64,000 bases of DNA from Escherichia coli (GCF_041886205.1 NZ_CP169029.1); one strand, 5' to 3'. Counted from the first letter of the stretch, positions 26,112 through 59,834 are shown. The notes: generated from the letters alone by a model not told the origin. Translations and numbers: made by a program.

Positions 26112-27302
26112 TCACAGCACCTTATGCGGGCCAAAGCATTCGTAATGAATGTTTTCCTGCTTCACGCCCAGATCCACTAACTGTTTCGCGGCAAACTGCA
26201 TGAAGCCAACCGGGCCGCAGAGATAGAACTGCATTGTCGGATCGCTGAACGCACCTTCCAGTTTGCTCAAATCCATCAGACCTTCGCTATCAAACTGACC
26301 TTTAGCGCGATCGGCTTCGCTCGGCTGACGATACCAGGTGTGCGCGGTAAAGCGCGGCAGTGACTGCCCCAGTTCCTTAACTTCATCGGCAAAGGCGTGA
26401 ACATCGCCATTTTCTGCCGCATGGAACCAGTTCACTTGTGCTGTGTGGCCTGCTTTTGCCAGCGTGTCGAGCATTGCCAGCATTGGCGTTTGACCAACAC
26501 CGGCAGAGATTAACGTCACTGGTGTGTCATCTGCGACAGCCATAAAGAAATCACCTGCCGGAGCGGCCAGTTTCACGACATCGCCAACATTGGCGTGATT
26601 GTGCAACCAGTTGGATACCTGCCCACCCTCTTCGCGTTTCACCGCAATACGATAGCCTTTGCCATCCGGTTTGCGAGTCAAAGAGTACTGACGAATTTCC
26701 TGATGCGGGAAACCTTCCGGCTTCAGCCAGACGCCGAGATATTGCCCCGGACGGTATTCTGCCACTGCACCACCGTCGACCGGCTCCAGTTCGAAGCTGG
26801 TGATAAGCGCGCTGCGCGGTGTTTTAGCCACAATGCGGAAATCGCGAGTACCTTCCCAACCACCGGCTTTGCTGGCGTTTTCGTTATAGATTTCCGCCTC
26901 GCGATTGATAAATACATTAGCCAGTACACCATAGGCTTTACCCCACGCGTCCAGCACTTCCTGCCCCGGGCTGAACATTTCGTCCAGCGTTGCCAACAGG
27001 TGTTCACCGACGATGTTGTACTGTTCCGGTTTGATCTGGAAACTGGTGTGCTTCTGCGCGATTTTTTCTACCGCTGGCAGCAGCGCAGGCAGGTTTTCAA
27101 TATTACTGGCGTAGGCGGCAATAGCGTTAAACAGGGCTTCACGTTGATCGCCATTACGCTGGTTACTCATGTTAAAAATTTCTTTGAGTTCTGGGTTATG
27201 AGTAAACATACGGTCGTAGAAATGGGCGGTTAACTTTGGCCCTGTTTCTACCAGTAAAGGGATGGTGGCTTTTACTGTAGCGATGGTTTGAGCGTCAAGC
27301 AT
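26112..27302 (-). CDS. hmp: flavohemoglobin (nitric oxide dioxygenase)
   Basis: 396-aa ORF, N-terminal globin and C-terminal FAD/NAD reductase domain. Confidence 0.95.
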
Positions 27303-27329
27303 ATGGTCTTCCTTTTTTTTGCATCTTAA

Positions 27330-27352
27330 TTGATGTATCTCAAATGCATCTT
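27330..27352 (-). promoter_or_regulatory. NsrR operator at hmp promoter
   Basis: Minus-strand aagatgcatttgagatacatcaa, an inverted repeat matching the NsrR consensus, just upstream of hmp start. Confidence 0.55.
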
Positions 27353-27630
27353 ATAAAAAATAGCCCTGCAATGTAAATGGTTCTTTGGTGTTTTTCAGAA
27401 AGAATGTGATGAAGTGAAAAATTTGCATCACAAACCTGAAAAGAAATCCGTTTCCGGTTGCAAGCTCTTTATTCTCCAAAGCCTTGCGTAGCCTGAAGGT
27501 AATCGTTTGCGTAAATTCCTTTGTCAAGACCTGTTATCGCACAATGATTCGGTTATACTGTTCGCCGTTGTCCAACAGGACCGCCTATAAAGGCCAAAAA
27601 TTTTATTGTTAGCTGAGTCAGGAGATGCGG

Positions 27631-28884
27631 ATGTTAAAGCGTGAAATGAACATTGCCGATTATGATGCCGAACTGTGGCAGGCTATAGAGCAGGAAAAAG
27701 TACGTCAGGAAGAGCACATCGAACTGATCGCCTCCGAAAACTACACCAGCCCGCGCGTAATGCAGGCGCAGGGTTCTCAGCTGACCAACAAATATGCTGA
27801 AGGTTATCCGGGCAAACGCTACTACGGCGGTTGCGAGTATGTTGATATCGTTGAACAACTGGCGATCGATCGTGCGAAAGAACTGTTCGGCGCTGACTAC
27901 GCTAACGTCCAGCCGCACTCCGGCTCCCAGGCTAACTTTGCGGTCTACACCGCGCTGCTGGAACCAGGTGATACCGTTCTGGGTATGAACCTGGCGCATG
28001 GCGGTCACCTGACTCACGGTTCTCCGGTTAACTTCTCCGGTAAACTGTACAACATCGTTCCTTACGGTATCGATGCTACCGGTCATATCGACTACGCCGA
28101 TCTGGAAAAACAAGCCAAAGAACACAAGCCGAAAATGATTATCGGTGGTTTCTCTGCATATTCCGGCGTGGTGGACTGGGCGAAAATGCGTGAAATCGCT
28201 GACAGCATCGGTGCTTACCTGTTCGTTGATATGGCGCACGTTGCGGGCCTGGTTGCTGCTGGCGTCTACCCGAACCCGGTTCCTCATGCTCACGTTGTTA
28301 CTACCACCACTCACAAAACCCTGGCGGGTCCGCGCGGCGGCCTGATCCTGGCGAAAGGTGGTAGCGAAGAGCTGTACAAAAAACTGAACTCTGCCGTTTT
28401 CCCTGGTGGTCAGGGCGGTCCGTTGATGCACGTAATCGCCGGTAAAGCGGTTGCTCTGAAAGAAGCGATGGAGCCTGAGTTCAAAACTTACCAGCAGCAG
28501 GTCGCGAAAAACGCTAAAGCGATGGTAGAAGTGTTCCTCGAGCGCGGCTACAAAGTGGTTTCCGGCGGCACTGATAACCACCTGTTCCTGGTTGATCTGG
28601 TTGATAAAAACCTGACCGGTAAAGAAGCAGACGCCGCTCTGGGCCGTGCTAACATCACCGTCAACAAAAACAGCGTACCGAACGATCCGAAGAGCCCGTT
28701 TGTGACCTCCGGTATTCGCGTGGGTACTCCGGCGATTACGCGTCGCGGCTTCAAAGAAGCAGAAGCGAAAGAACTGGCTGGCTGGATGTGTGACGTGCTG
28801 GACAGCATCAATGATGAAGCCGTTATCGAGCGCATCAAAGGTAAAGTTCTCGACATCTGCGCACGTTTCCCGGTTTACGCATAA
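27631..28884 (+). CDS. glyA: serine hydroxymethyltransferase
   Basis: Start refined to [12 protein letters not shown] (417 aa); PLP lysine motif [14 protein letters not shown]. Confidence 0.95.
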
Positions 28885-28947
28885 GCGAAACGGTTAATCT
28901 GTTGAAAAAAGGCTTCCTTCGGGAAGCCTTTCTACGTTATCGCGCCA

Positions 28948-30141
28948 TCAAATCTGTCGTAACTGCGCCTCAACATACAAATAGCCAATTCCCAGCACCT
29001 GTTGTGCGCGGCTTAATTGCCCGAAGCCAATTTGCGTCGCTTTCACGCTCGGTCCTTCGTCGCGGTCGAACGGGTTAAATCCTGTCTGGCGAATAATAGT
29101 ATTAAGCCAGTTCTCACCAAAGGCACAACTGCGACCGTACAACCAAATCTGATTAATATTGAGGATGTTGAGGAAGTTATACAGACTCAAACCAATGGCA
29201 TTGGCAGAGCGATCAACCCAGCTGGTGATCCACGGTTCTCCACTCTGCCAGGCAGCGATTAACTGCGCGGTTGTCAGTTTTTCAGGATCAAGCTGAGTAT
29301 TAACCGGTTGTGATTTTAGCCATACCCGCGCCTGTTTTTTTAATGCACTTAACGAGGCGACGGTTTCCAGGCAGCCGTAACGTCCACAGTCGCAGACGAC
29401 GCCATCCGGATTAACGATGGTGTGACCAATCTGTCCGCTACCATACAAACTGCCGCGATAAATTTGCTCGTTAATCACGAACGACGAGCCAATGCCGTAA
29501 TCAACGTTGATCACGCAGAAATCCCGTTCCTGCGAATTATTTTGCCATTTCTCCGCCAGCGCCAGCATCACGCAGTCATTATCGACCATCACCCGAATGC
29601 CCAGCTTCTCTTCCAGCAGATACTTCACCTCAACCGGCGTTGTCCACGGCGCTTGCGGCATGGTTTGCGATACGCCGGTCACCGGATCAACCTGCCCGTG
29701 GATTGCCAGCGCCAGATTGATGGTGCGGCCCGGCCACAGTTTGCGATGACGATGCCAGCATTTTTCGATTTCGGACAGCAGCGCCTGCGGCGTCGGTGCA
29801 TCAATCTGTAAATACTCAAATTCACCTTTCGGACTTAAACAAGCATTAGCAACCTGACACTCAATACTGGTGGGCGTCACGTTCAGGCACAGCGTCCAGT
29901 CACCTTCCGGCGCAATCAGCCATGTACCGCTACTATGCCCGCGCGTCTGGCTTTCATCGTCAATATTCACCACCCGTTTTTCGCTTTCCAGTTCCTGCAA
30001 AATATTACTGACTGCCGGAATCGAAATTTGCGCCAGCCGGGCCAGCGTTGATTTATTGGCGCGCTTTTGCCGGTACAGCAGTTCCAGAATCACGCATTTG
30101 TTATGGTGGCGAATCTGTTGATTATTAATGCAGGCTCTCAT
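28948..30141 (-). CDS. yphH: ROK-family transcriptional regulator / sugar kinase-like protein
   Basis: Start refined to MRACINNQQIRHHNK (397 aa); N-terminal HTH, ROK fold with CxCGxxGC zinc motif. Confidence 0.8.
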   Translation of the reverse strand: MRACINNQQIRHHNKCVILELLYRQKRANKSTLARLAQISIPAVSNILQELESEKRVVNIDDESQTRGHSSGTWLIAPEGDWTLCLNVTPTSIECQVANACLSPKGEFEYLQIDAPTPQALLSEIEKCWHRHRKLWPGRTINLALAIHGQVDPVTGVSQTMPQAPWTTPVEVKYLLEEKLGIRVMVDNDCVMLALAEKWQNNSQERDFCVINVDYGIGSSFVINEQIYRGSLYGSGQIGHTIVNPDGVVCDCGRYGCLETVASLSALKKQARVWLKSQPVNTQLDPEKLTTAQLIAAWQSGEPWITSWVDRSANAIGLSLYNFLNILNINQIWLYGRSCAFGENWLNTIIRQTGFNPFDRDEGPSVKATQIGFGQLSRAQQVLGIGYLYVEAQLRQI

Positions 30142-30165
30142 CTTCACTAAACCTTGTTTAGTTAA

Positions 30166-31031
30166 TTGCGTGATTATTCCGCGAAAACATTGCCAGATTG
30201 TTCAATACACTGCCACAAATCTTTTAATTCAGTATGTCTTGTTAATATTGAGGGCACCATGACTCCAGTAAAAGTGTGGCAAGAGCGCGTTGAGATCCCG
30301 ACCTATGAAACCGGGCCGCAGGATATACATCCCATGTTCCTGGAAAATCGCGTTTATCAGGGATCGTCCGGCGCGGTTTATCCCTACGGCGTGACCGATA
30401 CGCTGAGCGAGCAGAAAACCCTGAAATCCTGGCAGGCGGTGTGGCTGGAAAACGACTACATCAAAGTGATGATCCTGCCGGAACTGGGCGGTCGGGTGCA
30501 TCGCGCGTGGGATAAAGTGAAACAGCGCGATTTTGTTTATCACAATGAAGTCATTAAACCTGCGCTGGTGGGGCTGCTGGGGCCGTGGATTTCCGGTGGG
30601 ATTGAGTTTAACTGGCCGCAACATCATCGCCCGACCACCTTTATGCCCGTTGATTTCACCCTCGAAGCCCATGAAGACGGTGCACAGACGGTGTGGGTAG
30701 GCGAAACGGAGCCGATGCATGGTTTACAGGTGATGACAGGTTTCACCCTGCGCCCTGACCGGGCGGCGCTGGAAATCGCCAGCCGCGTCTATAACGGGAA
30801 CGCCACGCCGCGTCATTTCTTGTGGTGGGCCAACCCGGCAGTGAAAGGGGGGGAAGGGCATCAGAGCGTCTTCCCGCCGGATGTAACGGCGGTTTTTGAT
30901 CACGGCAAACGGGCCGTCTCCGCTTTCCCCATCGCTACCGGCACTTACTACAAAGTGGACTACTCCGCTGGAGTGGACATTTCTCGCTATAAAAATGTGC
31001 CTGTTCCAACCTCATATATGGCCGAAAAATC
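30166..31031 (+). pseudogene. yphG: yphG 5' fragment (large TPR/DUF protein), truncated by IS1
   Basis: Reading frame opens at 30166 (TTG; an ATG with GAGGG RBS lies at about 30259) and is broken at the IS1 junction; the same frame resumes exactly after the IS1 target duplication. Confidence 0.8.
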
Positions 31032-31046
31032 GGTAATGACTCCAAC

Positions 31047-31550
31047 TTATTGATAGTGTTTTATGTTCAGATAATGCCCGATAACTTTGTCATGCAGCTC
31101 CACCGATTTTGAGAACGACAGTGACTTCCTGCCCAGCCTTGCCAGATGCTGCCTCAGATTCAGGTTATGCCGCTCAATGCGCTGCGTATATCGCTTGCTG
31201 ATAACGTGCAGTTCTCCCTTCAGGCGTGATTCATAAAGCGGCCAGCCATCCGTCATCCATACCACGACCTCAAAGGCCGACAGCAGGCCCAGAAGACGCT
31301 CCAGCGTCGCCATAGTGCGTTCACCGAATACGTGCGCAACAACCGTCTTCCGGAGCCTGTCATACGCGTAAAACAGCCAGCGCTGGCGCGATTTAGCCCC
31401 GACATAGCCCCACTGTTCGTCCATTTCCGCGCAGACGATGACGTCACTGCCCGGCTGTATGCGCGAGGTTACCGACTGCGGCCTGAGTTTTTTAAGTGAC
31501 GTAAAATCGTGTTGAGGCCAACGCCCATAATGCGGGCAGTTGCCCGGCAT
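31047..31550 (-). CDS. insB: IS1 InsB (transposase C-terminal ORF; InsAB' made by -1 frameshift)
   Basis: 167-aa [19 protein letters not shown]...KHYQ recognised as IS1 InsB. Confidence 0.9.
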
Positions 31551-31744
31551 CCAACGCCATTCATGGCCATATCAATGATTTTCTGGTGCGTACCGGGTTG
31601 AGAAGCGGTGTAAGTGAACTGCAGTTGCCATGTTTTACGGCAGTGAGAGCAGAGATAGCGCTGATGTCCGGCGGTGCTTTTGCCGTTACGTACCACCCCG
31701 TCAGTAGCTGAACAGGAGGGACAGCTGATAGAAACAGAAGCCAC
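31469..31744 (-). CDS. insA: IS1 InsA (transposition repressor)
   Basis: 91-aa [46 protein letters not shown] (zinc-finger-like), GTG start; A6C slippery site ttaaaaaac at its 3' end. Confidence 0.9.
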
Positions 31745-31799
31745 TGGAGCACCTCAAAAACACCATCATACACTAAATCAGTAAGTTGGCAGCATCACC

Positions 31800-34316
31800 G
31801 AAAAATCGCAGTACGATTTTGTCGGCGCGTGGTGTCACGATGAAGATGGCGGTTTGCTGCACGTTGCCAACCACCATATTGCGCCAGGTAAAAAACAGTG
31901 GAGTTGGGGACACAGTGAATTTGGCCAGGCGTGGGATAAGAGTCTGACCGACAATAACGGCCCGTATATCGAACTGATGACCGGTATTTTTGCCGATAAC
32001 CAGCCCGATTTTACCTGGCTTGATGCTTACGAAGAGAAGCGTTTTGAGCAGTATTTCCTGCCTTATCATTCTTTGGGCATGGTGCAAAATGCCTCCCGCG
32101 ATGCGGTGATAAAACTCCAGCGTAGTGAGCGGGGGATTGAGTGGGGGCTGTATGCCATCTCTCCGTTGAACGGATACCGCCTGGCGATCCGCGAAATCGG
32201 CAAATGCAACGCGTTACTTGATGATGCCGTGGCACTGATGCCTGCGACCGCCATCCAGGGCGTGTTGCACGGTATCAATCCTGAAAGGCTGACCATTGAG
32301 CTCTCCGATGCCGACGGCAATATTGTACTGAGTTATCAGGAACATCAGCCGCAAGAGTTGCCGTTGCCGGACGTCGCCAAAGCGCCACTGGCAGCACAAG
32401 ACATTACCAGTACAGATGAAGCCTGGTTTATCGGTCAGCATCTGGAGCAATATCATCACGCCAGCCGTTCACCGTTCGATTACTACCTGCGCGGCGTGGC
32501 GCTGGATCCGCTGGATTACCGCTGTAACCTGGCGCTAGCGATGCTGGAATATAACCGTGCCGATTTCCCGCAAGCGGTGGCGTATGCCACTCAGGCTCTG
32601 AAACGCGCACATGCGCTGAACAAAAATCCGCAGTGCGGACAGGCGAGTTTGATTCGCGCCAGTGCTTACGAACGTCAGGGACAATATCAACAAGCCGAAG
32701 AGGATTTCTGGCGGGCGGTCTGGAGCGGCAACAGCAAAGCCGGTGGCTATTATGGCCTGGCACGACTGGCTGCGCGTAATGGTAACTTCGACGCGGGTCT
32801 GGATTTTTGCCAACAAAGTCTTCGCGCCTGCCCAACCAATCAGGAAGTGCTTTGCCTGCATAACCTGCTGCTGGTGTTAAGTGGTCGTCAGGACAACGCG
32901 CGTTTGCAGCGCGAGAAACTGCTGCGCGATTATCCGCTGAACGCCACTCTGTGGTGGCTGAACTGGTTCGATGGTCGTAGCGAATCAGCCCTCGCGCAGT
33001 GGCGCGGTCTGTGTCAGGGACGCGACGTTAACGCTCTGATGACCGCCGGGCAACTGATTAACTGGGGAATGCCCACCCTGGCGGCAGAGATGCTGAACGC
33101 ACTGGACTGTCAGCGCACGTTATCGCTTTATCTACAAGCCAGCTTGCTGCCGAAAGCCGAACGCGGCGAACTGGTCGCAAAAGCCATTGATGTCTTCCCG
33201 CAGTTTGTCCGTTTCCCGAATACGCTGGAAGAAGTGGCGGCGCTGGAGAGTATTGAAGAGTGCTGGTTTGCTCGCCATTTACTGGCCTGCTTCTACTACA
33301 ACAAACGTAGCTACAACAAAGCCATTGCCTTATGGCAACGTTGCGTAGAGATGTCGCCGGAGTTTGCCGACGGCTGGCGCGGGTTAGCGATCCATGCGTG
33401 GAATAAGCAACACGATTATGAGCTGGCCGCGCGTTATCTTGATAATGCTTATCAGCTTGCGCCGCAGGATGCACGTCTGCTTTTCGAACGGGATTTGCTT
33501 GATAAGTTAAGTGGAGCCACACCGGAGAAACGACTGGCGCGTCTGGAAAATAATCTGGAAATTGCGCTGAAACGCGACGACATGACCGCAGAACTGCTCA
33601 ATTTGTGGCATCTCACGGGGCAGGCAGACAAAGCGGCGGACATTCTCGCCACGCGTAAATTCCACCCGTGGGAAGGCGGGGAAGGGAAGGTCACCAGTCA
33701 GTTTATCCTCAACCAGTTATTACGCGCCTGGCAGCATCTTGATGCCAGAGAGCCGCAGCAGGCCAGCGAACTGCTTCATGCCGCGCTGTATTATCCGGAG
33801 AATTTAAGCGAAGGCCGTTTACCGGGGCAAACTGATAACGACATCTGGTTCTGGCAGGCGATATGCGCCAACGCGCAGGGCGATGAAACTGAAGCGATGC
33901 GTTGTTTACGTCTGGCGGCGACCGGCGATCGCACCATTAACATCCACAGTTATTACAACGATCAGCCGGTTGATTATCTCTTCTGGCAAGGAATGGCGCT
34001 GCGACTGCTGGGTGAACAGCAAACCGCACAGCAACTGTTTAGTGAAATGAAACAGTGGGCGCAAGAGATGGCGAAAACCAGTATTGAGGCGGATTTCTTT
34101 GCTGTTTCACAACCTGACCTGTTGTCGCTGTATGGCGATTTACAACAGCAGCATAAAGAAAAATGCCTGATGGTGGCGATGCTGGCGTCCGCGGGACTCG
34201 GGGAGGTTGCGCAATATGAATCTGCTCGCGCTGAATTGACGGCGATTAATCCGGCCTGGCCGAAAGCGGCATTATTCACCACCGTGATGCCTTTTATTTT
34301 TAACTACGTTCACTAA
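31800..34316 (+). pseudogene. yphG: yphG 3' fragment (TPR-repeat region), downstream of IS1
   Basis: Frame continues from the target duplication to stop at 34316; removing IS1 plus one repeat copy restores a single 3375-bp ORF (1124 aa). Confidence 0.8.
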
Positions 34317-34412
34317 ACCCTATTAACTGTAATATTTGAGCGGCACGCGCTGCCGCTCATCACAAAATAATTAGAATAAGCCGTTGTTAATAAAAACCCT
34401 ACAGGAGGCACT

Positions 34413-35396
34413 ATGCCTAAAAAAATGAGAACAACCCGTAATCTATTATTAATGGCTACGCTATTAGGTAGCGCACTATTTGCCAGGGCTGCGGATAAAG
34501 AAATGACCATTGGTGCAATATACCTTGATACCCAGGGATATTACGCTGGAGTGCGTCAGGGCGTTCAGGATGCGGCAAAAGATTCTTCAGTACAGGTACA
34601 GTTAATTGAAACTAACGCCCAGGGTGATATTTCGAAAGAAAGTACCTTTGTTGATACCCTCGTGGCGCGTAATGTCGATGCCATTATTTTATCGGCAGTG
34701 TCTGAAAATGGCAGTAGCCGTACCGTTCGTCGCGCCAGTGAAGCGGGTATTCCGGTGATTTGCTACAACACCTGTATTAATCAAAAGGGTGTCGATAAAT
34801 ATGTCTCGGCGTATCTGGTCGGCGATCCACTGGAATTTGGTAAAAAACTGGGTAACGCTGCCGCCGATTATTTTATTGCCAATAAAATTGACCAGCCGAA
34901 AATTGCCGTCATCAATTGCGAAGCCTTTGAAGTTTGTGTGCAGCGACGTAAAGGATTTGAAGAAGTATTAAAATCCCGCGTTCCCGGCGCGCAAATTGTC
35001 GCTAATCAGGAAGGGACTGTTTTAGATAAAGCGATTTCCGTTGGTGAAAAACTGATTATCTCCACGCCGGATCTCAACGCCATTATGGGGGAGTCGGGCG
35101 GTGCGACACTCGGCGCGGTAAAAGCGGTACGTAATCAAAATCAGGCCGGAAAAATTGCTGTTTTCGGTTCGGATATGACAACCGAAATTGCTCAGGAGCT
35201 GGAAAACAATCAGGTGCTGAAAGCGGTAGTGGATATTTCCGGTAAGAAAATGGGCAATGCTGTTTTCGCGCAAACATTGAAGGTTATCAATAAACAAGCC
35301 GACGGTGAAAAAGTGATTCAGGTGCCAATCGATCTCTATACCAAAACGGAAGATGGTAAACAGTGGCTGGCAACGCACGTTGATGGTCTGCCCTAA
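34413..35396 (+). CDS. yphF: periplasmic sugar-binding protein of ABC transporter
   Basis: 327-aa ORF with signal peptide and type I periplasmic binding fold. Confidence 0.85.
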   Translation: MPKKMRTTRNLLLMATLLGSALFARAADKEMTIGAIYLDTQGYYAGVRQGVQDAAKDSSVQVQLIETNAQGDISKESTFVDTLVARNVDAIILSAVSENGSSRTVRRASEAGIPVICYNTCINQKGVDKYVSAYLVGDPLEFGKKLGNAAADYFIANKIDQPKIAVINCEAFEVCVQRRKGFEEVLKSRVPGAQIVANQEGTVLDKAISVGEKLIISTPDLNAIMGESGGATLGAVKAVRNQNQAGKIAVFGSDMTTEIAQELENNQVLKAVVDISGKKMGNAVFAQTLKVINKQADGEKVIQVPIDLYTKTEDGKQWLATHVDGLP

Positions 35397-35418
35397 TCGC
35401 TGATTCGCAGAGGTCCCT

Positions 35419-36930
35419 ATGTTCACGGCAACAGAGGCAGTCCCGGTAGCAAAAGTGGTGGCAGGAAATAAGCGTTATCCCGGCGTCGTTGCGTTGGATA
35501 ACGTTAACTTCACGCTCAATAAAGGCGAAGTTCGTGCGCTGTTAGGCAAAAACGGCGCGGGCAAATCGACCCTCATTCGAATGCTTACCGGTAGCGAACG
35601 TCCGGATAGCGGTGATATCTGGATTGGCGAGACGCGACTGGAAGGCGACGAAGCTACGCTGACTCGCCGTGCCGCTGAACTGGGGGTACGCGCGGTTTAT
35701 CAGGAGTTAAGTCTGGTGGAAGGGCTGACGGTGGCGGAAAACCTCTGCCTCGGTCAGTGGCCCCGCCGCAACGGCATGATTGATTACCTGCAAATGGCGC
35801 AGGATGCCCAACGTTGCTTACAGGCGTTGGGCGTTGACGTTAGTCCTGAACAACTTGTTTCAACACTAAGCCCGGCGCAAAAGCAGCTGGTGGAAATTGC
35901 GCGGGTGATGAAGGGCGAGCCGCGCGTGGTCATTCTTGATGAACCTACCAGTTCGCTTGCCAGTGCGGAAGTTGAACTGGTGATCAGCGCGGTGAAAAAG
36001 ATGTCGGCACTGGGCGTGGCGGTAATTTATGTCAGCCACCGGATGGAAGAAATTCGCCGCATTGCCTCCTGTGCCACCGTTATGCGCGATGGTCAGGTGG
36101 CGGGCGATGTGATGCTCGAAAACACCTCCACGCATCATATTGTGTCGCTGATGCTCGGGCGCGATCACGTTGATATTGCGCCGGTTGCCCCTCAGGAAAT
36201 TGTGGATCAGGCCGTACTGGAAGTCCGTGCGTTACGCCATAAGCCCAAGCTGGAGGATATCAGTTTTACGCTACGTCGTGGCGAAGTGCTCGGCATTGCT
36301 GGTCTGCTGGGGGCAGGGCGCAGTGAATTGCTGAAGGCGATTGTTGGGCTGGAGGAGTATGAACAGGGCGAAATTGTTATCAACGGCGAGAAAATCACGC
36401 GCCCCGATTACGGCGACATGCTGAAACGCGGCATTGGCTATACGCCAGAAAACCGCAAAGAAGCGGGGATCATTCCCTGGTTGGGCGTTGACGAAAATAC
36501 AGTGCTGACCAATCGGCAAAAAATCAGCGCCAACGGTGTGCTGCAATGGTCCACCATCCGCCGCCTGACCGAAGAAGTGATGCAGCGGATGACGGTCAAG
36601 GCCGCCAGTAGCGAAACGCCCATCGGCACGCTTTCTGGCGGCAATCAGCAAAAAGTAGTGATCGGTCGTTGGGTCTATGCCGCCAGCCAGATTTTGTTGC
36701 TCGACGAGCCAACGCGCGGCGTCGATATCGAAGCCAAACAGCAGATTTACCGTATTGTCCGTGAGCTGGCTGCCGAAGGAAAAAGTGTGGTGTTTATCTC
36801 CAGTGAAGTGGAGGAGTTGCCGCTGGTGTGTGACCGCATCCTGTTATTACAGCACGGCACGTTCTCGCAGGAGTTTCACTCGCCGGTCAATGTGGATGAG
36901 CTGATGTCCGCCATTCTGTCTGTGCACTGA
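35419..36930 (+). CDS. yphE: sugar ABC transporter ATP-binding protein (duplicated ABC domains)
   Basis: 503-aa ORF with two Walker A motifs (GKNGAGKST, GLLGAGRSEL) and signature LSGGNQQK. Confidence 0.85.
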   Translation: MFTATEAVPVAKVVAGNKRYPGVVALDNVNFTLNKGEVRALLGKNGAGKSTLIRMLTGSERPDSGDIWIGETRLEGDEATLTRRAAELGVRAVYQELSLVEGLTVAENLCLGQWPRRNGMIDYLQMAQDAQRCLQALGVDVSPEQLVSTLSPAQKQLVEIARVMKGEPRVVILDEPTSSLASAEVELVISAVKKMSALGVAVIYVSHRMEEIRRIASCATVMRDGQVAGDVMLENTSTHHIVSLMLGRDHVDIAPVAPQEIVDQAVLEVRALRHKPKLEDISFTLRRGEVLGIAGLLGAGRSELLKAIVGLEEYEQGEIVINGEKITRPDYGDMLKRGIGYTPENRKEAGIIPWLGVDENTVLTNRQKISANGVLQWSTIRRLTEEVMQRMTVKAASSETPIGTLSGGNQQKVVIGRWVYAASQILLLDEPTRGVDIEAKQQIYRIVRELAAEGKSVVFISSEVEELPLVCDRILLLQHGTFSQEFHSPVNVDELMSAILSVH

Positions 36931-36954
36931 TGAATTTTACCGAGGAACCTGAAG

Positions 36955-37953
36955 ATGTCTGCTTCGTCATTACCATTGCCGCAGGGCAAGAGCGTCTCGC
37001 TCAAACAATTTGTCAGTCGCCATATTAATGAGATCGGTTTGCTGGTGGTGATTGCCATTCTTTATCTGGTCTTCTCCCTGAACGCGCCTGGCTTTATCTC
37101 ATTGAATAACCAGATGAACGTGCTGCGCGATGCCGCCACCATTGGGATTGCCGCCTGGGCGATGACGCTGATTATTATCTCCGGTGAGATTGATGTCAGC
37201 GTTGGGCCGATGGTGGCTTTTGTCTCGGTGTGCCTGGCATTTTTGCTGCAATTTGAAGTTCCGCTGGCGGTGGCGTGCCTGCTGGTGTTGCTGTTAGGCG
37301 CGCTGATGGGAACGCTGGCCGGGGTGCTGCGCGGCGTGTTTAATGTACCAAGTTTCGTTGCCACACTGGGGCTGTGGAGCGCCCTGCGCGGAATGGGGCT
37401 GTTTATGACGAACGCACTGCCAGTGCCGATTGATGAAAACGAGGTGCTGGACTGGCTGGGCGGACAATTTCTCGGTGTGCCGGTATCCGCGCTGATCATG
37501 ATTGTGTTGTTTGCGCTGTTTGTGTTCATCAGCCGCAAAACCGCCTTCGGGCGCTCGGTTTTTGCCGTTGGCGGTAATGCTACGGCGGCGCAGTTGTGCG
37601 GCATCAACGTTCGTCGGGTGCGCATTCTTATCTTTACCCTTTCGGGATTATTAGCGGCGGTGACCGGCATTTTGTTGGCGGCGCGCCTCGGTTCTGGTAA
37701 CGCAGGTGCCGCAAACGGTCTGGAGTTTGACGTCATCGCCGCGGTCGTGGTCGGCGGTACGGCACTTTCCGGCGGTCGCGGTTCCCTGTTCGGTACATTG
37801 CTTGGTGTGCTGGTGATTACGCTAATCGGTAACGGTCTGGTGCTGCTCGGTATTAACTCCTTTTTCCAGCAGGTGGTACGCGGCGTCATCATCGTGGTGG
37901 CGGTGCTGGCGAATATCTTGCTGACCCAGCGAAGCAGTAAAGCGAAACGCTAA
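36955..37953 (+). CDS. yphD: sugar ABC transporter permease
   Basis: 332-aa polytopic membrane ORF. Confidence 0.85.
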   Translation: MSASSLPLPQGKSVSLKQFVSRHINEIGLLVVIAILYLVFSLNAPGFISLNNQMNVLRDAATIGIAAWAMTLIIISGEIDVSVGPMVAFVSVCLAFLLQFEVPLAVACLLVLLLGALMGTLAGVLRGVFNVPSFVATLGLWSALRGMGLFMTNALPVPIDENEVLDWLGGQFLGVPVSALIMIVLFALFVFISRKTAFGRSVFAVGGNATAAQLCGINVRRVRILIFTLSGLLAAVTGILLAARLGSGNAGAANGLEFDVIAAVVVGGTALSGGRGSLFGTLLGVLVITLIGNGLVLLGINSFFQQVVRGVIIVVAVLANILLTQRSSKAKR

Positions 37954-38018
37954 ACCTTAACGCCCCTGGCGCGGGTGCGGCAGGGATGAAAATTAATCGT
38001 ATTGTTAATGAGGGATTT

Positions 38019-39080
38019 ATGAAAACGATGCTGGCAGCTTATTTACCAGGAAATTCGACCGTCGATCTGCGGGAAGTTGCGGTGCCGACGCCGGGGATTA
38101 ACCAGGTACTGATCAAAATGAAATCCTCCGGGATTTGCGGAAGCGATGTCCACTATATCTATCATCAACACCGTGCCACAGCGGCGGCACCCGATAAACC
38201 GTTATACCAGGGCTTTATCAACGGTCATGAACCGTGCGGGCAGATTGTGGCGATGGGGCAAGGCTGCCGCCATTTTAAAGAGGGCGACCGCGTGCTGGTG
38301 TATCACATTTCTGGCTGTGGTTTTTGCCCGAACTGCCGCCGCGGCTTTCCTATCTCTTGTACTGGCAAAGGAAAAGCGGCTTACGGCTGGCAGCGTGACG
38401 GCGGTCATGCCGAATATCTGCTGGCGGAAGAAAAAGATCTGATCCTCCTGCCGGATGCGCTGAGCTACGAAGATGGTGCGTTTATCAGTTGCGGCGTTGG
38501 CACGGCCTATGAAGGGATTTTGCGCGGCGAAGTTTCCGGCAGCGATAACGTGCTGGTGGTCGGTCTGGGGCCGGTCGGCATGATGGCGATGATGCTGGCG
38601 AAAGGTCGCGGTGCAAAACGGATCATCGGCGTTGATATGCTGCCGGAACGTCTGGCGATGGCAAAACAGTTAGGGGTGATGGATCACGGCTATTTAGCAA
38701 CCACCGAAGGTCTGCCGCAGATTATCGCCGAACTCACCCACGGTGGCGCGGATGTTGCGCTCGATTGTTCTGGTAATGCCGCAGGTCGCTTGCTGGCACT
38801 GCAATCCACCGCTGACTGGGGACGGGTGGTTTACATTGGTGAAACCGGAAAAGTGGAATTCGAGGTCAGCGCCGATCTGATGCACCATCAACGGCGGATT
38901 ATCGGCTCCTGGGTGACCAGTCTGTTCCATATGGAAAAATGCGCCCATGATCTGACGGACTGGAAACTGTGGCCGCGTAACGCCATTACCCATCGCTTCA
39001 CGCTGGAACAGGCTGGAGATGCCTATGCGCTGATGGCGAGCGGCAAATGCGGGAAAGTTGTGATTAACTTCCCGGATTAA
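38019..39080 (+). CDS. yphC: zinc-dependent alcohol/polyol dehydrogenase (MDR family)
   Basis: Start refined to MKTMLAAYLPG (353 aa) with GAGGGA RBS; GICGSDVH catalytic zinc and GLGPVG NAD motifs. Confidence 0.8.
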   Translation: MKTMLAAYLPGNSTVDLREVAVPTPGINQVLIKMKSSGICGSDVHYIYHQHRATAAAPDKPLYQGFINGHEPCGQIVAMGQGCRHFKEGDRVLVYHISGCGFCPNCRRGFPISCTGKGKAAYGWQRDGGHAEYLLAEEKDLILLPDALSYEDGAFISCGVGTAYEGILRGEVSGSDNVLVVGLGPVGMMAMMLAKGRGAKRIIGVDMLPERLAMAKQLGVMDHGYLATTEGLPQIIAELTHGGADVALDCSGNAAGRLLALQSTADWGRVVYIGETGKVEFEVSADLMHHQRRIIGSWVTSLFHMEKCAHDLTDWKLWPRNAITHRFTLEQAGDAYALMASGKCGKVVINFPD

Positions 39081-39091
39081 GGAGTTAGCGG

Positions 39092-39964
39092 ATGACCATC
39101 TATACCTTATCCCACGGGTCGCTAAAGCTGGACGTTTCTGACCAGGGCGGCGTAATCGAAGGCTTCTGGCGCGATACGACGCCGCTCTTACGTCCTGGTA
39201 AAAAAAGCGGTGTGGCAACCGATGCCTCCTGTTTTCCGCTGGTGCCATTTGCAAACCGGGTGAGCGGCAACCGTTTTGTCTGGCAGGGGCGTGAGTATCA
39301 ACTGCAACCGAATGTTGAGTGGGATGCGCACTATCTACACGGCGATGGCTGGCTGGGCGAGTGGCAATGTGTCTCGCACAGCGATGATAGTTTGTGTCTG
39401 GTGTATGAACATCGCAGCGGTGTCTATCACTATCGGGTAAGTCAGGCGTTTCATTTAACGGCGGATACGCTGACGGTGACGCTCTCTGTCACCAATCAAG
39501 GGGCAGAGACGCTGCCATTTGGTACCGGCTGGCATCCTTATTTTCCGTTGTCACCACAAACGCGGATTCAGGCGCAGGCGAGCGGTTACTGGCTGGAACG
39601 GGAGCAGTGGCTGGCGGGTGAGTTTTGCGAGCAGCTACCGCAGGAACTGGATTTTAACCAGCTCGCGCCGTTGCCGCGCCAGTGGGTGAACAATGGTTTT
39701 GCCGGATGGAATGGTCAGGCCCGCATCGAGCAGCCGCAGGAAGGTTATGCCATCATCATGGAAACGACGCCACCTGCACCGTGTTATTTCATCTTTGTTT
39801 CCGACCCTGCGTTTGATAAAGGATATGCGTTTGATTTCTTCTGTCTGGAACCGATGAGCCATGCGCCGGATGATCATCATCGCCCGGAAGGGGGTGATCT
39901 CATTGCGCTAGCACCAGGGGAATCAACAACTTCAGAGATGTCGTTGCGGGTAGAGTGGCTGTAA
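39092..39964 (+). CDS. yphB: aldose 1-epimerase family protein
   Basis: 290-aa ORF, mutarotase-like fold. Confidence 0.75.
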   Translation: MTIYTLSHGSLKLDVSDQGGVIEGFWRDTTPLLRPGKKSGVATDASCFPLVPFANRVSGNRFVWQGREYQLQPNVEWDAHYLHGDGWLGEWQCVSHSDDSLCLVYEHRSGVYHYRVSQAFHLTADTLTVTLSVTNQGAETLPFGTGWHPYFPLSPQTRIQAQASGYWLEREQWLAGEFCEQLPQELDFNQLAPLPRQWVNNGFAGWNGQARIEQPQEGYAIIMETTPPAPCYFIFVSDPAFDKGYAFDFFCLEPMSHAPDDHHRPEGGDLIALAPGESTTSEMSLRVEWL

Positions 39965-39974
39965 TTTATTAAAT

Positions 39975-40004
39975 GCCGGATAAGGCGTTCACGCCGCATC
40001 CGGC
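39975..40004. repeat. REP element between yphB and yphA
   Basis: gccggataaggcgttcacgccgcatccggc, canonical REP palindrome. Confidence 0.6.
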
Positions 40005-40011
40005 ATCTTTC

Positions 40012-40434
40012 CTAACGCCGATCGAGAGAAATTGCCCCCGGCCCGGTAATTGCCAATAGCAAGAACGCGCCAGCGATACTGACATTCTTCCAGAAATTAA
40101 TCATATTTGGCCCAACCGCATCGCCGGTCATATCCCAGTAATGGTGACCAATCACCGCCGTACCCAGCGTGTAGAAAATAAACAGCACCGCCAGCGGACG
40201 GGTGAAAAAGCCAAGCACGATTAATATCGCGGCGGGCACTTCCATAACTACCGCAATAATCGCTGCCAGCATCGGCATTGGCGCGCCCAACGAGGCCATA
40301 TATTGGACCGTACCGTCAAAGCCCATCATTTTGGGAAAACCAAAAATAATGAAAATTAAGACCACGGCGATACGGGCAATTAATAACAAAACGGGGCGGG
40401 CAGCTCCAAAATCAAAATAACGTAGTGTGTTCAT
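40012..40434 (-). CDS. yphA: DoxX-family inner membrane protein
   Basis: Start refined to [18 protein letters not shown] (140 aa); four TM helices. Confidence 0.8.
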
Positions 40435-40530
40435 AACCAATCCCTTTGCAAGATAATGTGATTTAAACGTAATACACACTCTTGCACCTCGCCACGCCCC
40501 AGGCGTTGAGATATTCGCTAATTATCCTGG

Positions 40531-41742
<1,212 letters not shown>

Positions 41743-42555
41743 TTAAAGATCCAGCCCAGCCGCTACGTGGCGAATGCCGCGAATCGCTAAACCCGCATCA
41801 GCGTTGATCATCACACCGCTTAATGCGCGATTATTGCGCCGCGATGCCAACATCACATACGGCCCCGTAAAATCCGCCGGTTGCGGGAAAAATTGCAGCG
41901 GTAAAATGGCGGCAATTTTCTCCGGCGTCAGAGACTGCATTATCGAGGTTTCACTTTGCCCGAGCGCCTGTGGGCCGCGCAGGTCGCTGGCCATACCACA
42001 CGGGCCGACGCCATTCACCCGCACTTTCGGTGCCAGTTCATAAGCCAGTTGGCGAATAAGTCCGGTTGCGGCATGTTTACTGGCGGTGTACAGCGGGCCA
42101 CCGCCGCCAGGATACCAGGCGGCATTTGACAGTGTGAAAATCATGCTGCCTTCACTGGCGATTAACGCCGGAGCGCAGGCTTTTGCGCCCAGCAGGTAAC
42201 CGAGAACATTGACGTTAAACAGCTCGTGGAAGCCGGTTTCGAGCGTCTCTGCGGGAGTATTAACCAGTGAGGCATTGTGATCCCAGATGCCTGCATTGCC
42301 GATAAAACAATCCAGCTTGCCGGAACGAGTCAGGATCTGATCGACCGCGCGTTGATAATCGGCATAACAGGTCACGTTACCTTCCACCGCCAGAATATGT
42401 TCGCCAAATCGCTGACGCAGACTGGCGACTTTTGCCGCCGACAGTTCCAGCGTGGCAACCTGCGCGCCTTCTTCGATAAATCGCTCGACCAGCGCCAGCC
42501 CTAATCCCGATCCGCCGCCGGTAATAAAAATGGACTCGTTATGCAGATCGCTCAT
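41743..42555 (-). CDS. hcaB: 2,3-dihydroxy-2,3-dihydrophenylpropionate dehydrogenase (SDR)
   Basis: 270-aa ORF with SDR motifs TGGGSGLG and YTASK. Confidence 0.9.
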
Positions 42556-57090: not shown

Positions 57091-57148
57091 ATGAACGGGC
57101 TGCCTGGGGGTAGCCCGTTTTGCTGTTAAACGAATAAGGATAACTAAA

Positions 57149-58432
57149 ATGACAGAAGCGATGAAAATTACCCTTTCTACCCAACCTGCCGACGCGCGCT
57201 GGGGAGAAAAAGCGACTTACAGCATTAATAATGATGGCATTAACCTGCATTTGAACGGGGCAGACGATCTGGGGCTGATCCAGCGTGCGGCGCGCAAGAT
57301 TGACGGTCTGGGCATCAAGCATGTTCAGCTAAGCGGTGAAGGCTGGGATGCGGATCGTTGCTGGGCATTCTGGCAAGGTTACAAAGCTCCGAAAGGCACG
57401 CGTAAAGTGGAGTGGCCGGATCTGGACGATGCCCAACGCCAGGAACTGGATAACCGCCTGATGATCATCGACTGGGTGCGTGACACTATCAACGCACCGG
57501 CAGAAGAATTGGGGCCATCGCAACTGGCACAGCGTGCTGTTGATCTGATCAGCAACGTCGCAGGCGATCGTGTGACTTACCGGATCACCAAAGGCGAAGA
57601 TCTGCGTGAGCAAGGTTATATGGGGCTGCACACCGTCGGACGCGGTTCAGAACGTTCTCCGGTATTGCTGGCGCTGGATTACAATCCAACTGGCGATAAA
57701 GAAGCACCGGTGTACGCGTGCCTGGTTGGTAAAGGCATCACTTTTGATTCCGGCGGCTACAGCATCAAACAGACTGCGTTTATGGACTCGATGAAGTCGG
57801 ACATGGGCGGCGCGGCAACGGTTACCGGGGCGCTGGCGTTTGCCATTACGCGCGGACTGAACAAGCGCGTGAAGCTGTTCCTCTGCTGTGCGGATAACCT
57901 GATCAGCGGCAATGCGTTCAAGCTGGGCGATATCATTACCTATCGCAACGGTAAAAAAGTTGAAGTGATGAACACCGATGCGGAAGGGCGTCTGGTGCTG
58001 GCTGATGGCCTGATTGATGCCAGTGCGCAAAAACCGGAACTGATCATTGATGCGGCGACCCTCACCGGGGCGGCGAAAACCGCGCTGGGTAATGATTATC
58101 ACGCGCTGTTCAGTTTTGACGATGCGCTTGCCGCTCGCTTGCTGGCGAGTGCCTCACAAGAGAATGAACCGTTCTGGCGTCTGCCGCTGGCGGAGTTCCA
58201 CCGCAGCCAGCTGCCGTCTAACTTTGCCGAACTGAACAATACCGGAAGCGCGGCGTATCCGGCAGGTGCAAGCACGGCGGCGGGCTTTCTGTCGCACTTT
58301 GTTGAGAACTATCAGCAAGGCTGGCTGCATATCGACTGCTCGGCGACTTACCGTAAAGCGCCGGTTGAACAGTGGTCTGCGGGTGCTACGGGACTTGGTG
58401 TGCGCACGATTGCTAATCTGTTAACGGCGTAA
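57149..58432 (+). CDS. pepB: peptidase B (M17 aminopeptidase)
   Basis: 427-aa ORF with M17 signature NTDAEGRL. Confidence 0.9.
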
Positions 58433-58440
58433 ACTAATAT

Positions 58441-58540
<100 letters not shown>

Positions 58541-58574
58541 TTGTGCCCCGAACGTTGAATGAATTGTGGTTCTT

Positions 58575-59351
58575 ATGTCCGAAACAAAAAATGAACTTGA
58601 AGACCTGCTGGAAAAAGCAGCAACCGAACCGGCGCACCGCCCGGCCTTTTTCCGTACTCTACTGGAATCCACCGTCTGGGTGCCTGGTACGGCGGCGCGG
58701 GGCGAGGCGGTGGTTGAAGATAGCGCGCTTGATTTACAGCACTGGGAAAAAGAAGACGGCACCAGCGTCATTCCTTTTTTTACCTCGTTAGAAGCACTTC
58801 AACAGGCAGTTGAAGACGAACAGGCATTTGTCGTAATGCCCGTTCGCACATTGTTTGAGATGACCCTTGGCGAAACGCTCTTCCTTAATGCCAAACTGCC
58901 AACCGGTAAAGAGTTTATGCCGCGTGAAATCAGTTTGTTGATTGGTGAAGAAGGGAATCCGCTGAGTAGCCAGGAAGTACTGGAAGGCGGTGAATCGCTG
59001 ATATTATCGGAAGTCGCAGAGCCGCCAGCACAAATGATTGATTCACTCACCACCTTATTTAAAACCATTAAGCCAGTGAAGCGTGCTTTTATATGTTCAA
59101 TTAAAGAGAACGAAGAGGCACAGCCTAATTTACTTATTGGCATTGAAGCCGATGGTGATATCGAAGAAATTATTCAGGCGGCGGGAAGTGTAGCGACCGA
59201 TACATTACCTGGCGATGAACCAATCGATATTTGTCAGGTGAAAAAAGGGGAAAAAGGAATTAGCCACTTTATTACCGAACATATTGCGCCATTCTATGAA
59301 CGTCGTTGGGGTGGTTTTTTGCGTGACTTTAAACAGAACCGGATAATCTAA
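58575..59351 (+). CDS. sseB: protein SseB (enhances serine sensitivity)
   Basis: Start refined to MSETKNELEDLLEKA (258 aa). Confidence 0.85.
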   Translation: MSETKNELEDLLEKAATEPAHRPAFFRTLLESTVWVPGTAARGEAVVEDSALDLQHWEKEDGTSVIPFFTSLEALQQAVEDEQAFVVMPVRTLFEMTLGETLFLNAKLPTGKEFMPREISLLIGEEGNPLSSQEVLEGGESLILSEVAEPPAQMIDSLTTLFKTIKPVKRAFICSIKENEEAQPNLLIGIEADGDIEEIIQAAGSVATDTLPGDEPIDICQVKKGEKGISHFITEHIAPFYERRWGGFLRDFKQNRII

Positions 59352-59800
59352 AATATGCCGCCCCAAAGGGCGGCATTCGGGCTTACCTGCTGTTCTGAAG
59401 GTTGTTAACCACCAGTAAATTGTTGCCGGAGAGACTCAGGTTATTATTTACCTCGGTTAACAGCGCACCAGAAACAATAAGTACGATACAAAAGCACCGT
59501 ATCTTCATTGTGCGGTCCATGCGAAGACCGCATCACGACAGCACCACTGGCGATATTGCCGCGATAGCAAGCGCTGTGAAACACCTGCATTTACGGCCAC
59601 GGAACATCCTTTCCTAAAGCCAGCGCCCGTTTGCGAGACGGCGGAAAGGGCCGGTGTCGATAATACGCTAAATAAACAATAATTACTCTCTTTTGCTTGA
59701 CAAAAAGAGAGTTGCTGGCGAATATTGCTCTGCTGTGAAGCACCTGCGTTGCTCATGCAACACAAGTCAACCTGCTGGAAAGGCCGCGAACCAGACCAGC
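59352..59800. ncRNA. ryfA: putative sRNA locus (position consistent with ryfA) in the sseB-sseA convergent spacer
   Basis: 500-bp gap between convergent genes, bounded by hairpin terminators on both sides and containing promoter-like hexamers; I recall ryfA being annotated between sseA and sseB but cannot verify strand or ends from sequence. Confidence 0.35.
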
Positions 59801-59803
59801 AAT

Positions 59804-59834
59804 AAAAAACCGCCAAATTCGGCGGTTTTTTATT
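59804..59834. terminator. bidirectional rho-independent terminator (sseA 3' end / opposing short transcript)
   Basis: aaaaaaccgcc-aaattc-ggcggtttttt, GC stem flanked by A-run and T-run. Confidence 0.6.

Follow-up and report, generated by a model that had tools for sequence, protein, structure and literature searches.

The yph locus of an Escherichia coli strain carrying IS1 in yphG: a conserved gene cluster and a tentative role in the oxidation of a galacto-configured aldose

Gene content and conservation of the yph locus

We analysed a stretch of 64,000 nucleotides of Escherichia coli DNA (GCF_041886205.1, NZ_CP169029.1), referred to below as the window, and focused on the eight genes yphH to yphA that it carries at positions 28948-40434. 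An open reading frame (ORF) map of 27000-42500, combined with megablast searches of 5,426 complete E. coli genomes, placed these genes between glyA and hcaD. The region is the conserved yphH / yphGFEDCB / yphA locus of E. coli and Shigella. Its gene set, order, orientation and position relative to glyA and hcaD are those of yphA-yphH (b2543-b2550) in MG1655, the RefSeq annotation of the close strain SY3626 likewise listing these eight genes. At a coverage of at least 80%, the locus was found in 5,368 of the 5,426 genomes. It is an ordinary and previously annotated locus.

The gene yphH (28948-30141, minus strand) is intact and encodes a putative repressor of 397 residues belonging to the ROK family (NagC/Mlc-like). 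Six genes follow on the plus strand: yphG (30259-34316), which combines DUF5107 with TPR repeats and is interrupted by IS1; yphF (34413-35396), encoding a periplasmic binding protein of 327 residues (Peripla_BP_4); yphE (35419-36930), a fused double ATPase of 503 residues of the ATP-binding cassette (ABC) type with two ABC_tran stretches; yphD (36955-37953), a BPD_transp_2 permease of 332 residues; yphC (37986-39080), a zinc-dependent medium-chain dehydrogenase of 364 residues from the ATG at 37986, or 353 from 38019, the equivalent of the K-12 start; and yphB (39092-39964), a member of the aldose 1-epimerase family of 290 residues. The last gene, yphA (40012-40434, minus strand), encodes a DoxX membrane protein of 140 residues. 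Pfam searches confirmed the families proposed in the initial annotation, namely ROK, DUF5107 with TPR, Peripla_BP_4, two ABC_tran domains, BPD_transp_2, ADH_N with ADH_zinc_N, Aldose_epim and DoxX.

Once IS1 is removed, the locus aligns with that of MG1655 over 10,711 nucleotides with 139 mismatches and no gaps (98.7% identity). The seven proteins other than YphG are full length and each differs from its K-12 counterpart by 0 to 3 residues, YphD and YphA being identical and YphH differing at 3 positions. The ORFs and this gap-free alignment bear out the earlier description of a cluster that is intact apart from yphG; the IS1 copy in yphG is present only on the window side.

An IS1 element interrupts yphG

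The insertion first noticed in yphG is an IS1 element of 768 bp (31032-31799, minus strand) with the ends GGTAATG...CATCACC. It contains intact insA (31469-31744, minus strand, 91 residues) and insB (31047-31550, minus strand, 167 residues) and is 99.2% identical to annotated IS1 copies. It is flanked by an 8-bp target duplication, GAAAAATC, at 31024-31031 and 31800-31807; a duplication of 9 bp can be read only if IS1 is counted as 767 bp. Excision of 776 bp restores an uninterrupted YphG ORF of 1093 residues, collinear with that of K-12. The 5' fragment (30259-31031, plus strand) holds codons 1-258 and ends within DUF5107 (residues 39-324), while the 3' fragment (31808-34316, plus strand) holds codons 259-1093, which encode the remainder of a mutarotase-fold domain, a small beta-sandwich and a TPR solenoid. 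The interrupted gene would give a product of 264 residues (P0390). Since IS1 is inserted after codon 258, within DUF5107, the allele is null. The insertion had been taken to mean that yphG is dispensable under the recent growth conditions of the strain; this is sound, and other truncated yphG alleles occur in public assemblies.

The exact yphG::IS1 junction was found in none of the 5,426 complete E. coli genomes. A partial YphG ending precisely at residue 258 (P0402) is present on 37 public contigs, as expected because IS1 breaks short-read assemblies. A separate frameshift allele of yphG (303 residues) was found on 18 contigs, and complete genomes encode further truncated YphG products. In SY3626 (NZ_CP059283.1, yphF region at 7272-9032 of the retrieved stretch), IS1A splits yphF, not yphG. 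The same five-piece pattern was seen in several other top megablast matches, which suggests that IS1 has inserted independently in the yph locus. From the truncated alleles, inactivation of yphG appears to be recurrent. The value of the IS1 allele itself is limited to that of a strain marker and a natural yphG knockout.

The ratio of nonsynonymous to synonymous divergence (dN/dS) from K-12 lies between 0.015 and 0.08 in the seven genes that differ, yphG included, and is 0.039 for yphH; yphA is identical. Because this ratio is low in all differing genes, the locus is being kept in the species and the IS1 insertion is recent. One could instead regard the insertion as one step in a Shigella-like reductive evolution that has left the whole cluster without function in this lineage, as the IS1 copies in yphG here and in yphF of another strain, and the several further truncated yphG alleles, might indicate. 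However, the seven other genes are intact, no excess of replacements is seen even in yphG, the cluster is retained in 5,368 of the 5,426 genomes and the whole 64-kb window contains a single IS element, so that decay of the cluster is very improbable. Purifying selection maintains the yph locus, which belongs to the genes that lack experimental functional evidence, in nearly all E. coli. Synonymous divergence (dS) from K-12 is at most 0.006 in yphD (36955-37953), yphA (40012-40434) and the first 258 codons of yphG (30259-31031), and 0.05-0.08 in the genes next to them, a mosaic that suggests recombination patches.

YphFED resembles the CUT2 sugar importers

YphF, YphE and YphD together display the architecture of ribose-type (CUT2) ABC importers, in which a Peripla_BP_4 binding protein is associated with a fused double ATPase and a BPD_transp_2 permease. 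The same three parts are found in RbsBAC, AraFGH, AlsBAC, MglBAC and YtfQRT-YjfF of E. coli. YphF matches Peripla_BP_4 with 116 bits and begins with a signal-like sequence ending in ARA/AD; its best solved relative, 5hsg (E 1e-24), has no assigned function. YphFED would accordingly import a monosaccharide. A substrate cannot be transferred from the E. coli CUT2 importers, because YphF scores far below their models: 44-64 bits against the NCBIfam models of RbsB, AlsB, MglB, YtfQ, LsrB and RhaS, whose cut-offs are 335-510. The nearest NCBIfam models of YphE, those of AraG, XylG and AlsA, are likewise below cut-off.

More generally, none of the eight proteins attains the curated cut-off of an NCBIfam model with a defined function, and our literature search found no substrate assignment within the literature that it covered, in agreement with the earlier statement that the substrate is not established. 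A 2023 review lists yphFED as a 'putative' sugar ABC transporter (PMC10305011). In an engineered strain, YphF increased 3- to 4.6-fold on levoglucosan compared to fructose, alongside MalE, XylF, MglA and UgpB (PMC8753852). We read this increase as relief of catabolite repression and set it aside as evidence for a substrate.

YphC and YphB

YphC is composed of the Pfam domains ADH_N, ADH_zinc_N and Glu_dehyd_C. The ligands of the catalytic zinc (C51/H81/E82), the four cysteines of the structural zinc site (C111/C114/C117/C125), the Rossmann GxGxxG motif (GLGPVG, G193-G198) and D217 are conserved in 19 orthologues, Asp217 being typical of NAD use. All equivalog models remain below cut-off (bits/cut-off: Tdh 171/380, IolM 169/450, GatD 108/550, IdnD 90/469). 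Genes for further YphC relatives (52-58% identity) occur in Bacteroidales, Spirochaetes and Clostridia without yph-like neighbours, and these relatives were set aside as a different subfamily.

YphB matches Aldose_epim with 185.7 bits and PDB entry 3NRE at E 1e-208. The latter is a structural-genomics entry identical to YphB, a solved mutarotase fold without assigned activity. Domain and structure matches thus place YphB in the aldose 1-epimerase family.

Orthologous clusters link YphC to an epimerase and an aldonate dehydratase

We compared the gene neighbourhoods of YphC orthologues. Those of Acidisoma cellulosilytica, Vibrio nigripulchritudo and a third genome, 61-75% identical to YphC, are embedded in blocks encoding a binding protein, a double ATPase, a permease, the zinc-dependent alcohol dehydrogenase (Zn-ADH) and an epimerase. 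The transporter proteins are 52-70% identical to YphF, YphE and YphD and the epimerases 41-50% identical to YphB, and in all three genomes the dehydrogenase and epimerase genes share overlapping stop and start codons. When species-representative genomes were scanned, four Mesorhizobium species and Lichenifustis also proved to have these five genes, arranged in another order. The block is adjoined by a GntR/FCD regulator and an enolase-superfamily dehydratase in 7 of the 8 genomes, and by the regulator only in the third genome mentioned above. The two dehydratases tested against the NCBIfam galactonate-dehydratase model (cut-off 311) reached 577 bits for Vibrio and 339 bits for Acidisoma, and the Vibrio enzyme is 53% identical to E. 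coli DgoD without gaps. In Vibrio the Zn-ADH is the sole oxidoreductase of the cluster; in Mesorhizobium the cluster is bounded by unrelated genes. An importer, anomer equilibration, a dehydrogenase and an aldonate dehydratase together form the signature of an oxidative aldose route.

The initial annotation had proposed uptake and oxidation of a sugar or sugar alcohol, with YphC as a polyol dehydrogenase. The reading as an importer and a dehydrogenase stands; the polyol label is over-specific for YphC. On a polyol route, YphFED would import a sugar alcohol and YphC would oxidise its C2 to give a ketose, in the manner of sorbitol or xylitol dehydrogenase, housekeeping kinases completing the pathway. 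The presence of xylitol, sorbitol and L-iditol dehydrogenases among the solved relatives of YphC and the lack of a kinase in the cluster are in line with such a route. Yet YphC is most constantly accompanied by an aldose 1-epimerase, an enzyme restricted to hemiacetal sugars, and in three genomes the stop and start codons of the two genes overlap; Vibrio, Acidisoma, Mesorhizobium and Lichenifustis have an aldonate dehydratase linked to the block; and polyol-specific NCBIfam models come nowhere near their cut-offs. We consider a polyol route quite unlikely. Because of the epimerase pairing and of the galactonate-dehydratase-family neighbour conserved in orthologous clusters, aldose 1-dehydrogenase activity on a galacto-configured sugar is the favoured prediction for YphC.

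The locus appears to combine two modules

Other Enterobacterales carry a ROK gene divergent from yphG, followed by an epimerase gene and a Sugar_tr gene of the major facilitator superfamily (MFS), without the dehydrogenase or YphFED. Five loci (L005, L008, L009, L010 and L097) associate ROK, DUF5107-TPR and epimerase genes with a transporter that is either a Sugar_tr MFS protein or an unrelated CUT2 ABC system, a dehydrogenase gene being absent. One ROK-yphG-epimerase-MFS locus occupies the glyA-hcaT position of E. coli, and in one genome the ROK-yphG pair stands beside an unrelated CUT2 ABC transporter. Enterobacter, Citrobacter and Budvicia possess the full yphGFEDCB set with a Sugar_tr MFS gene directly 3' of yphB; Rahnella also has the full set, with no MFS match in the retrieved stretch. 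From this distribution, the eight genes look like two joined evolutionary modules, the yphFEDC block having been inserted into a ROK-YphG-epimerase-MFS module. As both modules use YphB-type epimerases, they presumably handle the same class of sugar. Escherichia has lost the MFS gene, and its yphA lies at the opposite side of the cluster.

Linkage of a DoxX gene to the ROK gene is also seen in other loci of Enterobacterales; in three loci (L020, L032 and L097) the DoxX gene neighbours yphH rather than following yphB. Of these, L020 is a complete enterobacterial-type yph locus, 81-93% identical to that of E. coli, on a contig labelled Chryseobacterium sp. (CACSKA010000009.1), which is most likely a mislabelled or contaminated assembly.

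YphG associates a mutarotase-fold domain with a TPR solenoid

YphG stands out in this locus as a member of a large and widespread protein family for which a high-confidence model is available. It matches DUF5107 (188.9 bits) and several TPR models of Pfam, and over its N-terminal 457 residues it shares 55-59% identity with proteins from Bacteroidota, Paenibacillus and Acidobacteria. Clustering at 50% identity divides the family into about 3,900 groups; among its 150 best representatives, the majority are 1,050-1,140 residues long. AlphaFold models have a predicted local distance difference test score (pLDDT) of 94 for the N-terminal domain and, for the full-length protein (AlphaFold 2), a pLDDT of 96.2 and a predicted template modelling score (pTM) of 0.94. 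The N-terminal domain adopts the beta-sandwich fold of mutarotases. A Foldseek search with the full-length model returned only mutarotases and TPR scaffolds, the C-terminal 630 residues matching TPR superhelices; the idea that this part forms an alpha/alpha toroid of the glycosidase or lyase type was therefore rejected.

In the alignment of the N-terminal domain, H122, N179, N192, K287, Y311 and E313 are invariant. In a larger alignment of full-length sequences N179, N192 and E313 remain so and H122, H123, K287 and Y311 are near-invariant. Of the His/His/Glu catalytic set of mutarotases, the position expected for the second histidine would be taken by the invariant N192, a correspondence read from proportional position only. 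The TPR part contributes the conserved loop motifs FxPWEGGEG and PxNLGEG. Signal peptides are absent from close relatives of YphG and present in more distant ones (35-40% identity). The Bacteroidota homologues have an MFS sugar transporter gene close by; GH30, GH2 and GDSL genes lie near two of these loci and galK near one.

YphG is predicted to be a cytoplasmic protein of 1093 residues whose galactose-mutarotase-fold domain is held by the TPR solenoid, and it probably is an enzyme acting on a reducing sugar or a small derivative thereof. A role as a sugar-binding sensor or scaffold, whose TPR part would contact YphH or the transporter and tune induction of the operon, would account for the true TPR superhelix formed by the C-terminal 630 residues, as in scaffolds of protein-protein interactions, and for the fact that yphG is always divergent from a ROK gene in Proteobacteria and in locus L010. 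Such a role seems unlikely: the N-terminal domain retains 55-59% identity across phyla and invariant polar residues, which is typical of an active site, the homologues of Bacteroidota and Paenibacillus are paired with AraC-type and not ROK regulators, and exported members exist.

A further possibility is that YphC oxidises a ring hydroxyl, for example at C3, in a sugar or in a small glycoside, and that YphG cleaves or isomerises the compound so activated, YphB equilibrating the freed sugar. Such chemistry would be comparable to that of scyllo-inosose 3-dehydrogenase or of E. coli YcjQ/YcjS. YphC indeed scores as well against IolM, the scyllo-inosose 3-dehydrogenase (169 bits), as against Tdh, and the signal peptides of some YphG members, as well as the cytoplasmic Bacteroidota homologues beside GH30, GH2 and SusCD genes, would fit a glycan-active enzyme. 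But many genomes have YphG without YphC and others YphC without YphG, showing that the two do not form an obligate pair, and the transporters are of monosaccharide types. The probability that we give to this route is low.

YphH and the intergenic signals

YphH matches ROK with 113.5 bits. Its residues 16-53 match a MarR-type helix-turn-helix at 21 bits, slightly below the Pfam cut-off, and the Mlc model aligns from residue 9, so that the protein associates the ROK sugar-binding domain with an N-terminal winged helix-turn-helix. It is not an orthologue of NagC or Mlc, as it reaches 111 and 108 bits against NCBIfam cut-offs of 650 and 530. YphH has been described as 'a third uncharacterized ROK repressor' on a long branch of its own (PMC4288165) and was listed in 2022 among the transcription factors without assigned function (PMC9308461).

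The divergent yphH-yphG intergenic region contains a perfect palindrome, ACTAAAC-CTT-GTTTAGT (30146-30162), 5 nucleotides from the yphH start codon. Two enterobacterial loci, with YphH proteins of only 56-58% identity, partly keep this block; it could be a YphH operator or a part of the yphH leader. The 96-nucleotide yphG-yphF spacer contains a perfect 9-bp GC-rich hairpin, TGAGCGGCA/TGCCGCTCA (34337-34359, plus strand); the spacer as a whole folds at -21.3 kcal/mol (z = -1.98). No T-run is present 3' of the hairpin and the terminator scan made no call there; instead of terminating transcription, the hairpin could serve in RNA stability or attenuation. Over 28800-40600, promoter and terminator scans detected sites no more frequently than in shuffled sequence.

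Upstream of the locus, the glyA-yphH spacer measures 63 bp in the window compared to about 198 bp in K-12 and SY3626; an element of about 135-149 bp of these strains, possibly a repeat of the repetitive extragenic palindromic (REP) type, is absent at 28895-28908. Elsewhere in the window, identity to K-12 falls to 95.9%, with 7 gaps, in the stretch matching sseB/ryfA-timP (57130-59831), compared to 98.4-98.9% over the remainder; the alignment of this stretch overlaps that of the following block (59638-59831).

Discussion

Taken together, our data lead us to propose the following scheme. YphFED would bring a monosaccharide into the cell and YphB would interconvert its anomers. YphC, judging from the gene neighbourhoods, is most likely a NAD-dependent aldose 1-dehydrogenase whose product is an aldonolactone or an aldonate. 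The configuration of the imported sugar is probably galacto, as in D-galactose, D-fucose or L-arabinose or in the L-series counterparts of these, and the aldonate would enter unlinked pathways such as dgoRKADT, which in K-12 is located elsewhere on the chromosome. YphH may repress the divergent promoter, and YphG is most likely an enzyme whose target is the reducing end of either the imported sugar or a small derivative. In the present strain YphG would be lost. IS1 insertions are classically polar, and for this reason the yphG promoter probably also gives less expression of yphFEDCB. Taken as a whole, with the identity of the locus, the two functional modules and the polarity, we hold this explanation tentatively, at a little less than an even chance.

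Several points weigh against it. The best solved relatives of YphC are alcohol, xylitol and threonine dehydrogenases (about E 1e-36). The alphaproteobacterial clusters also carry a short-chain dehydrogenase/reductase (SDR) that passes the cut-off of a 'glucose 1-dehydrogenase' subfamily, and for this reason the SDR, rather than the Zn-ADH, may be the aldose dehydrogenase in these bacteria. According to the ORFs and Pfam matches of 28948-40434, the cluster of the window encodes no lactonase, dehydratase, kinase or aldolase. Mutants of K-12 in galK fail to grow on galactose; with D-galactose as substrate, the pathway would have to be cryptic or repressed. Profile comparison of DUF5107 with the YphB family by hhalign was non-significant (probability 0.4%). 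The yphG-yphF hairpin is strong and promoter signals are at chance level, co-transcription of yphG and yphF being only presumed. Finally, a full-text literature search turned up no functional study (assay, binding or growth phenotype) of any yph gene.

The comparative evidence narrows the candidate substrates to a few galacto-configured aldoses and the candidate activity of YphC to that of an aldose 1-dehydrogenase. Beyond the prior annotation, it adds the hypothesis of oxidation at C1, the two-module history of the locus and the description of YphG as a large family uniting a mutarotase fold with a TPR solenoid. A bolder proposal, which we regard as doubtful, is that YphG is the founding member of a new carbohydrate-active class, in which a mutarotase-fold domain completed by the TPR loops FxPWEGGEG and PxNLGEG would catalyse a reaction other than mutarotation, the yph locus being an unrecognised route for galacto-sugars in E. 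coli. The reaction might then be a furanose-pyranose or other ring-form conversion, or the cleavage of a small galactose derivative, for instance, in a family found in Proteobacteria, Bacteroidota, Firmicutes and Acidobacteria, always adjoining sugar transporters.

Among proteins of known structure, YphG can be compared to the GalM/aldose 1-epimerase family, which includes YphB (3NRE). Its domain is only 8-15% identical to these proteins, and unlike them it possesses an additional beta-sandwich and the 630-residue TPR solenoid. BDI_1685 of Parabacteroides distasonis (PDB 5CD6), a 'TPR-domain containing protein' from structural genomics that has no assigned function, is shorter, with 575 residues compared to 1093 in YphG.

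At the level of pathways, the recently characterised sulfofucose pathway of Paracoccus employs an ABC transporter, an optional mutarotase, a dehydrogenase and an enzyme of the galactonate-dehydratase family (PMC12421959). The Paracoccus cluster also contains a PF08240-PF00107 protein annotated as 'threonine dehydrogenase', with no assigned role (PMC12421959), which might be a relative of YphC. The logic of this pathway and of the De Ley-Doudoroff galactose route (dgoRKADT) is matched by the orthologous clusters found elsewhere, which bring together an importer, a mutarotase, a dehydrogenase, a DgoD-family dehydratase and a GntR/FCD regulator. In contrast to both systems, the cluster of the window has a ROK and not a GntR regulator, and its dehydrogenase is a zinc-dependent medium-chain dehydrogenase/reductase.

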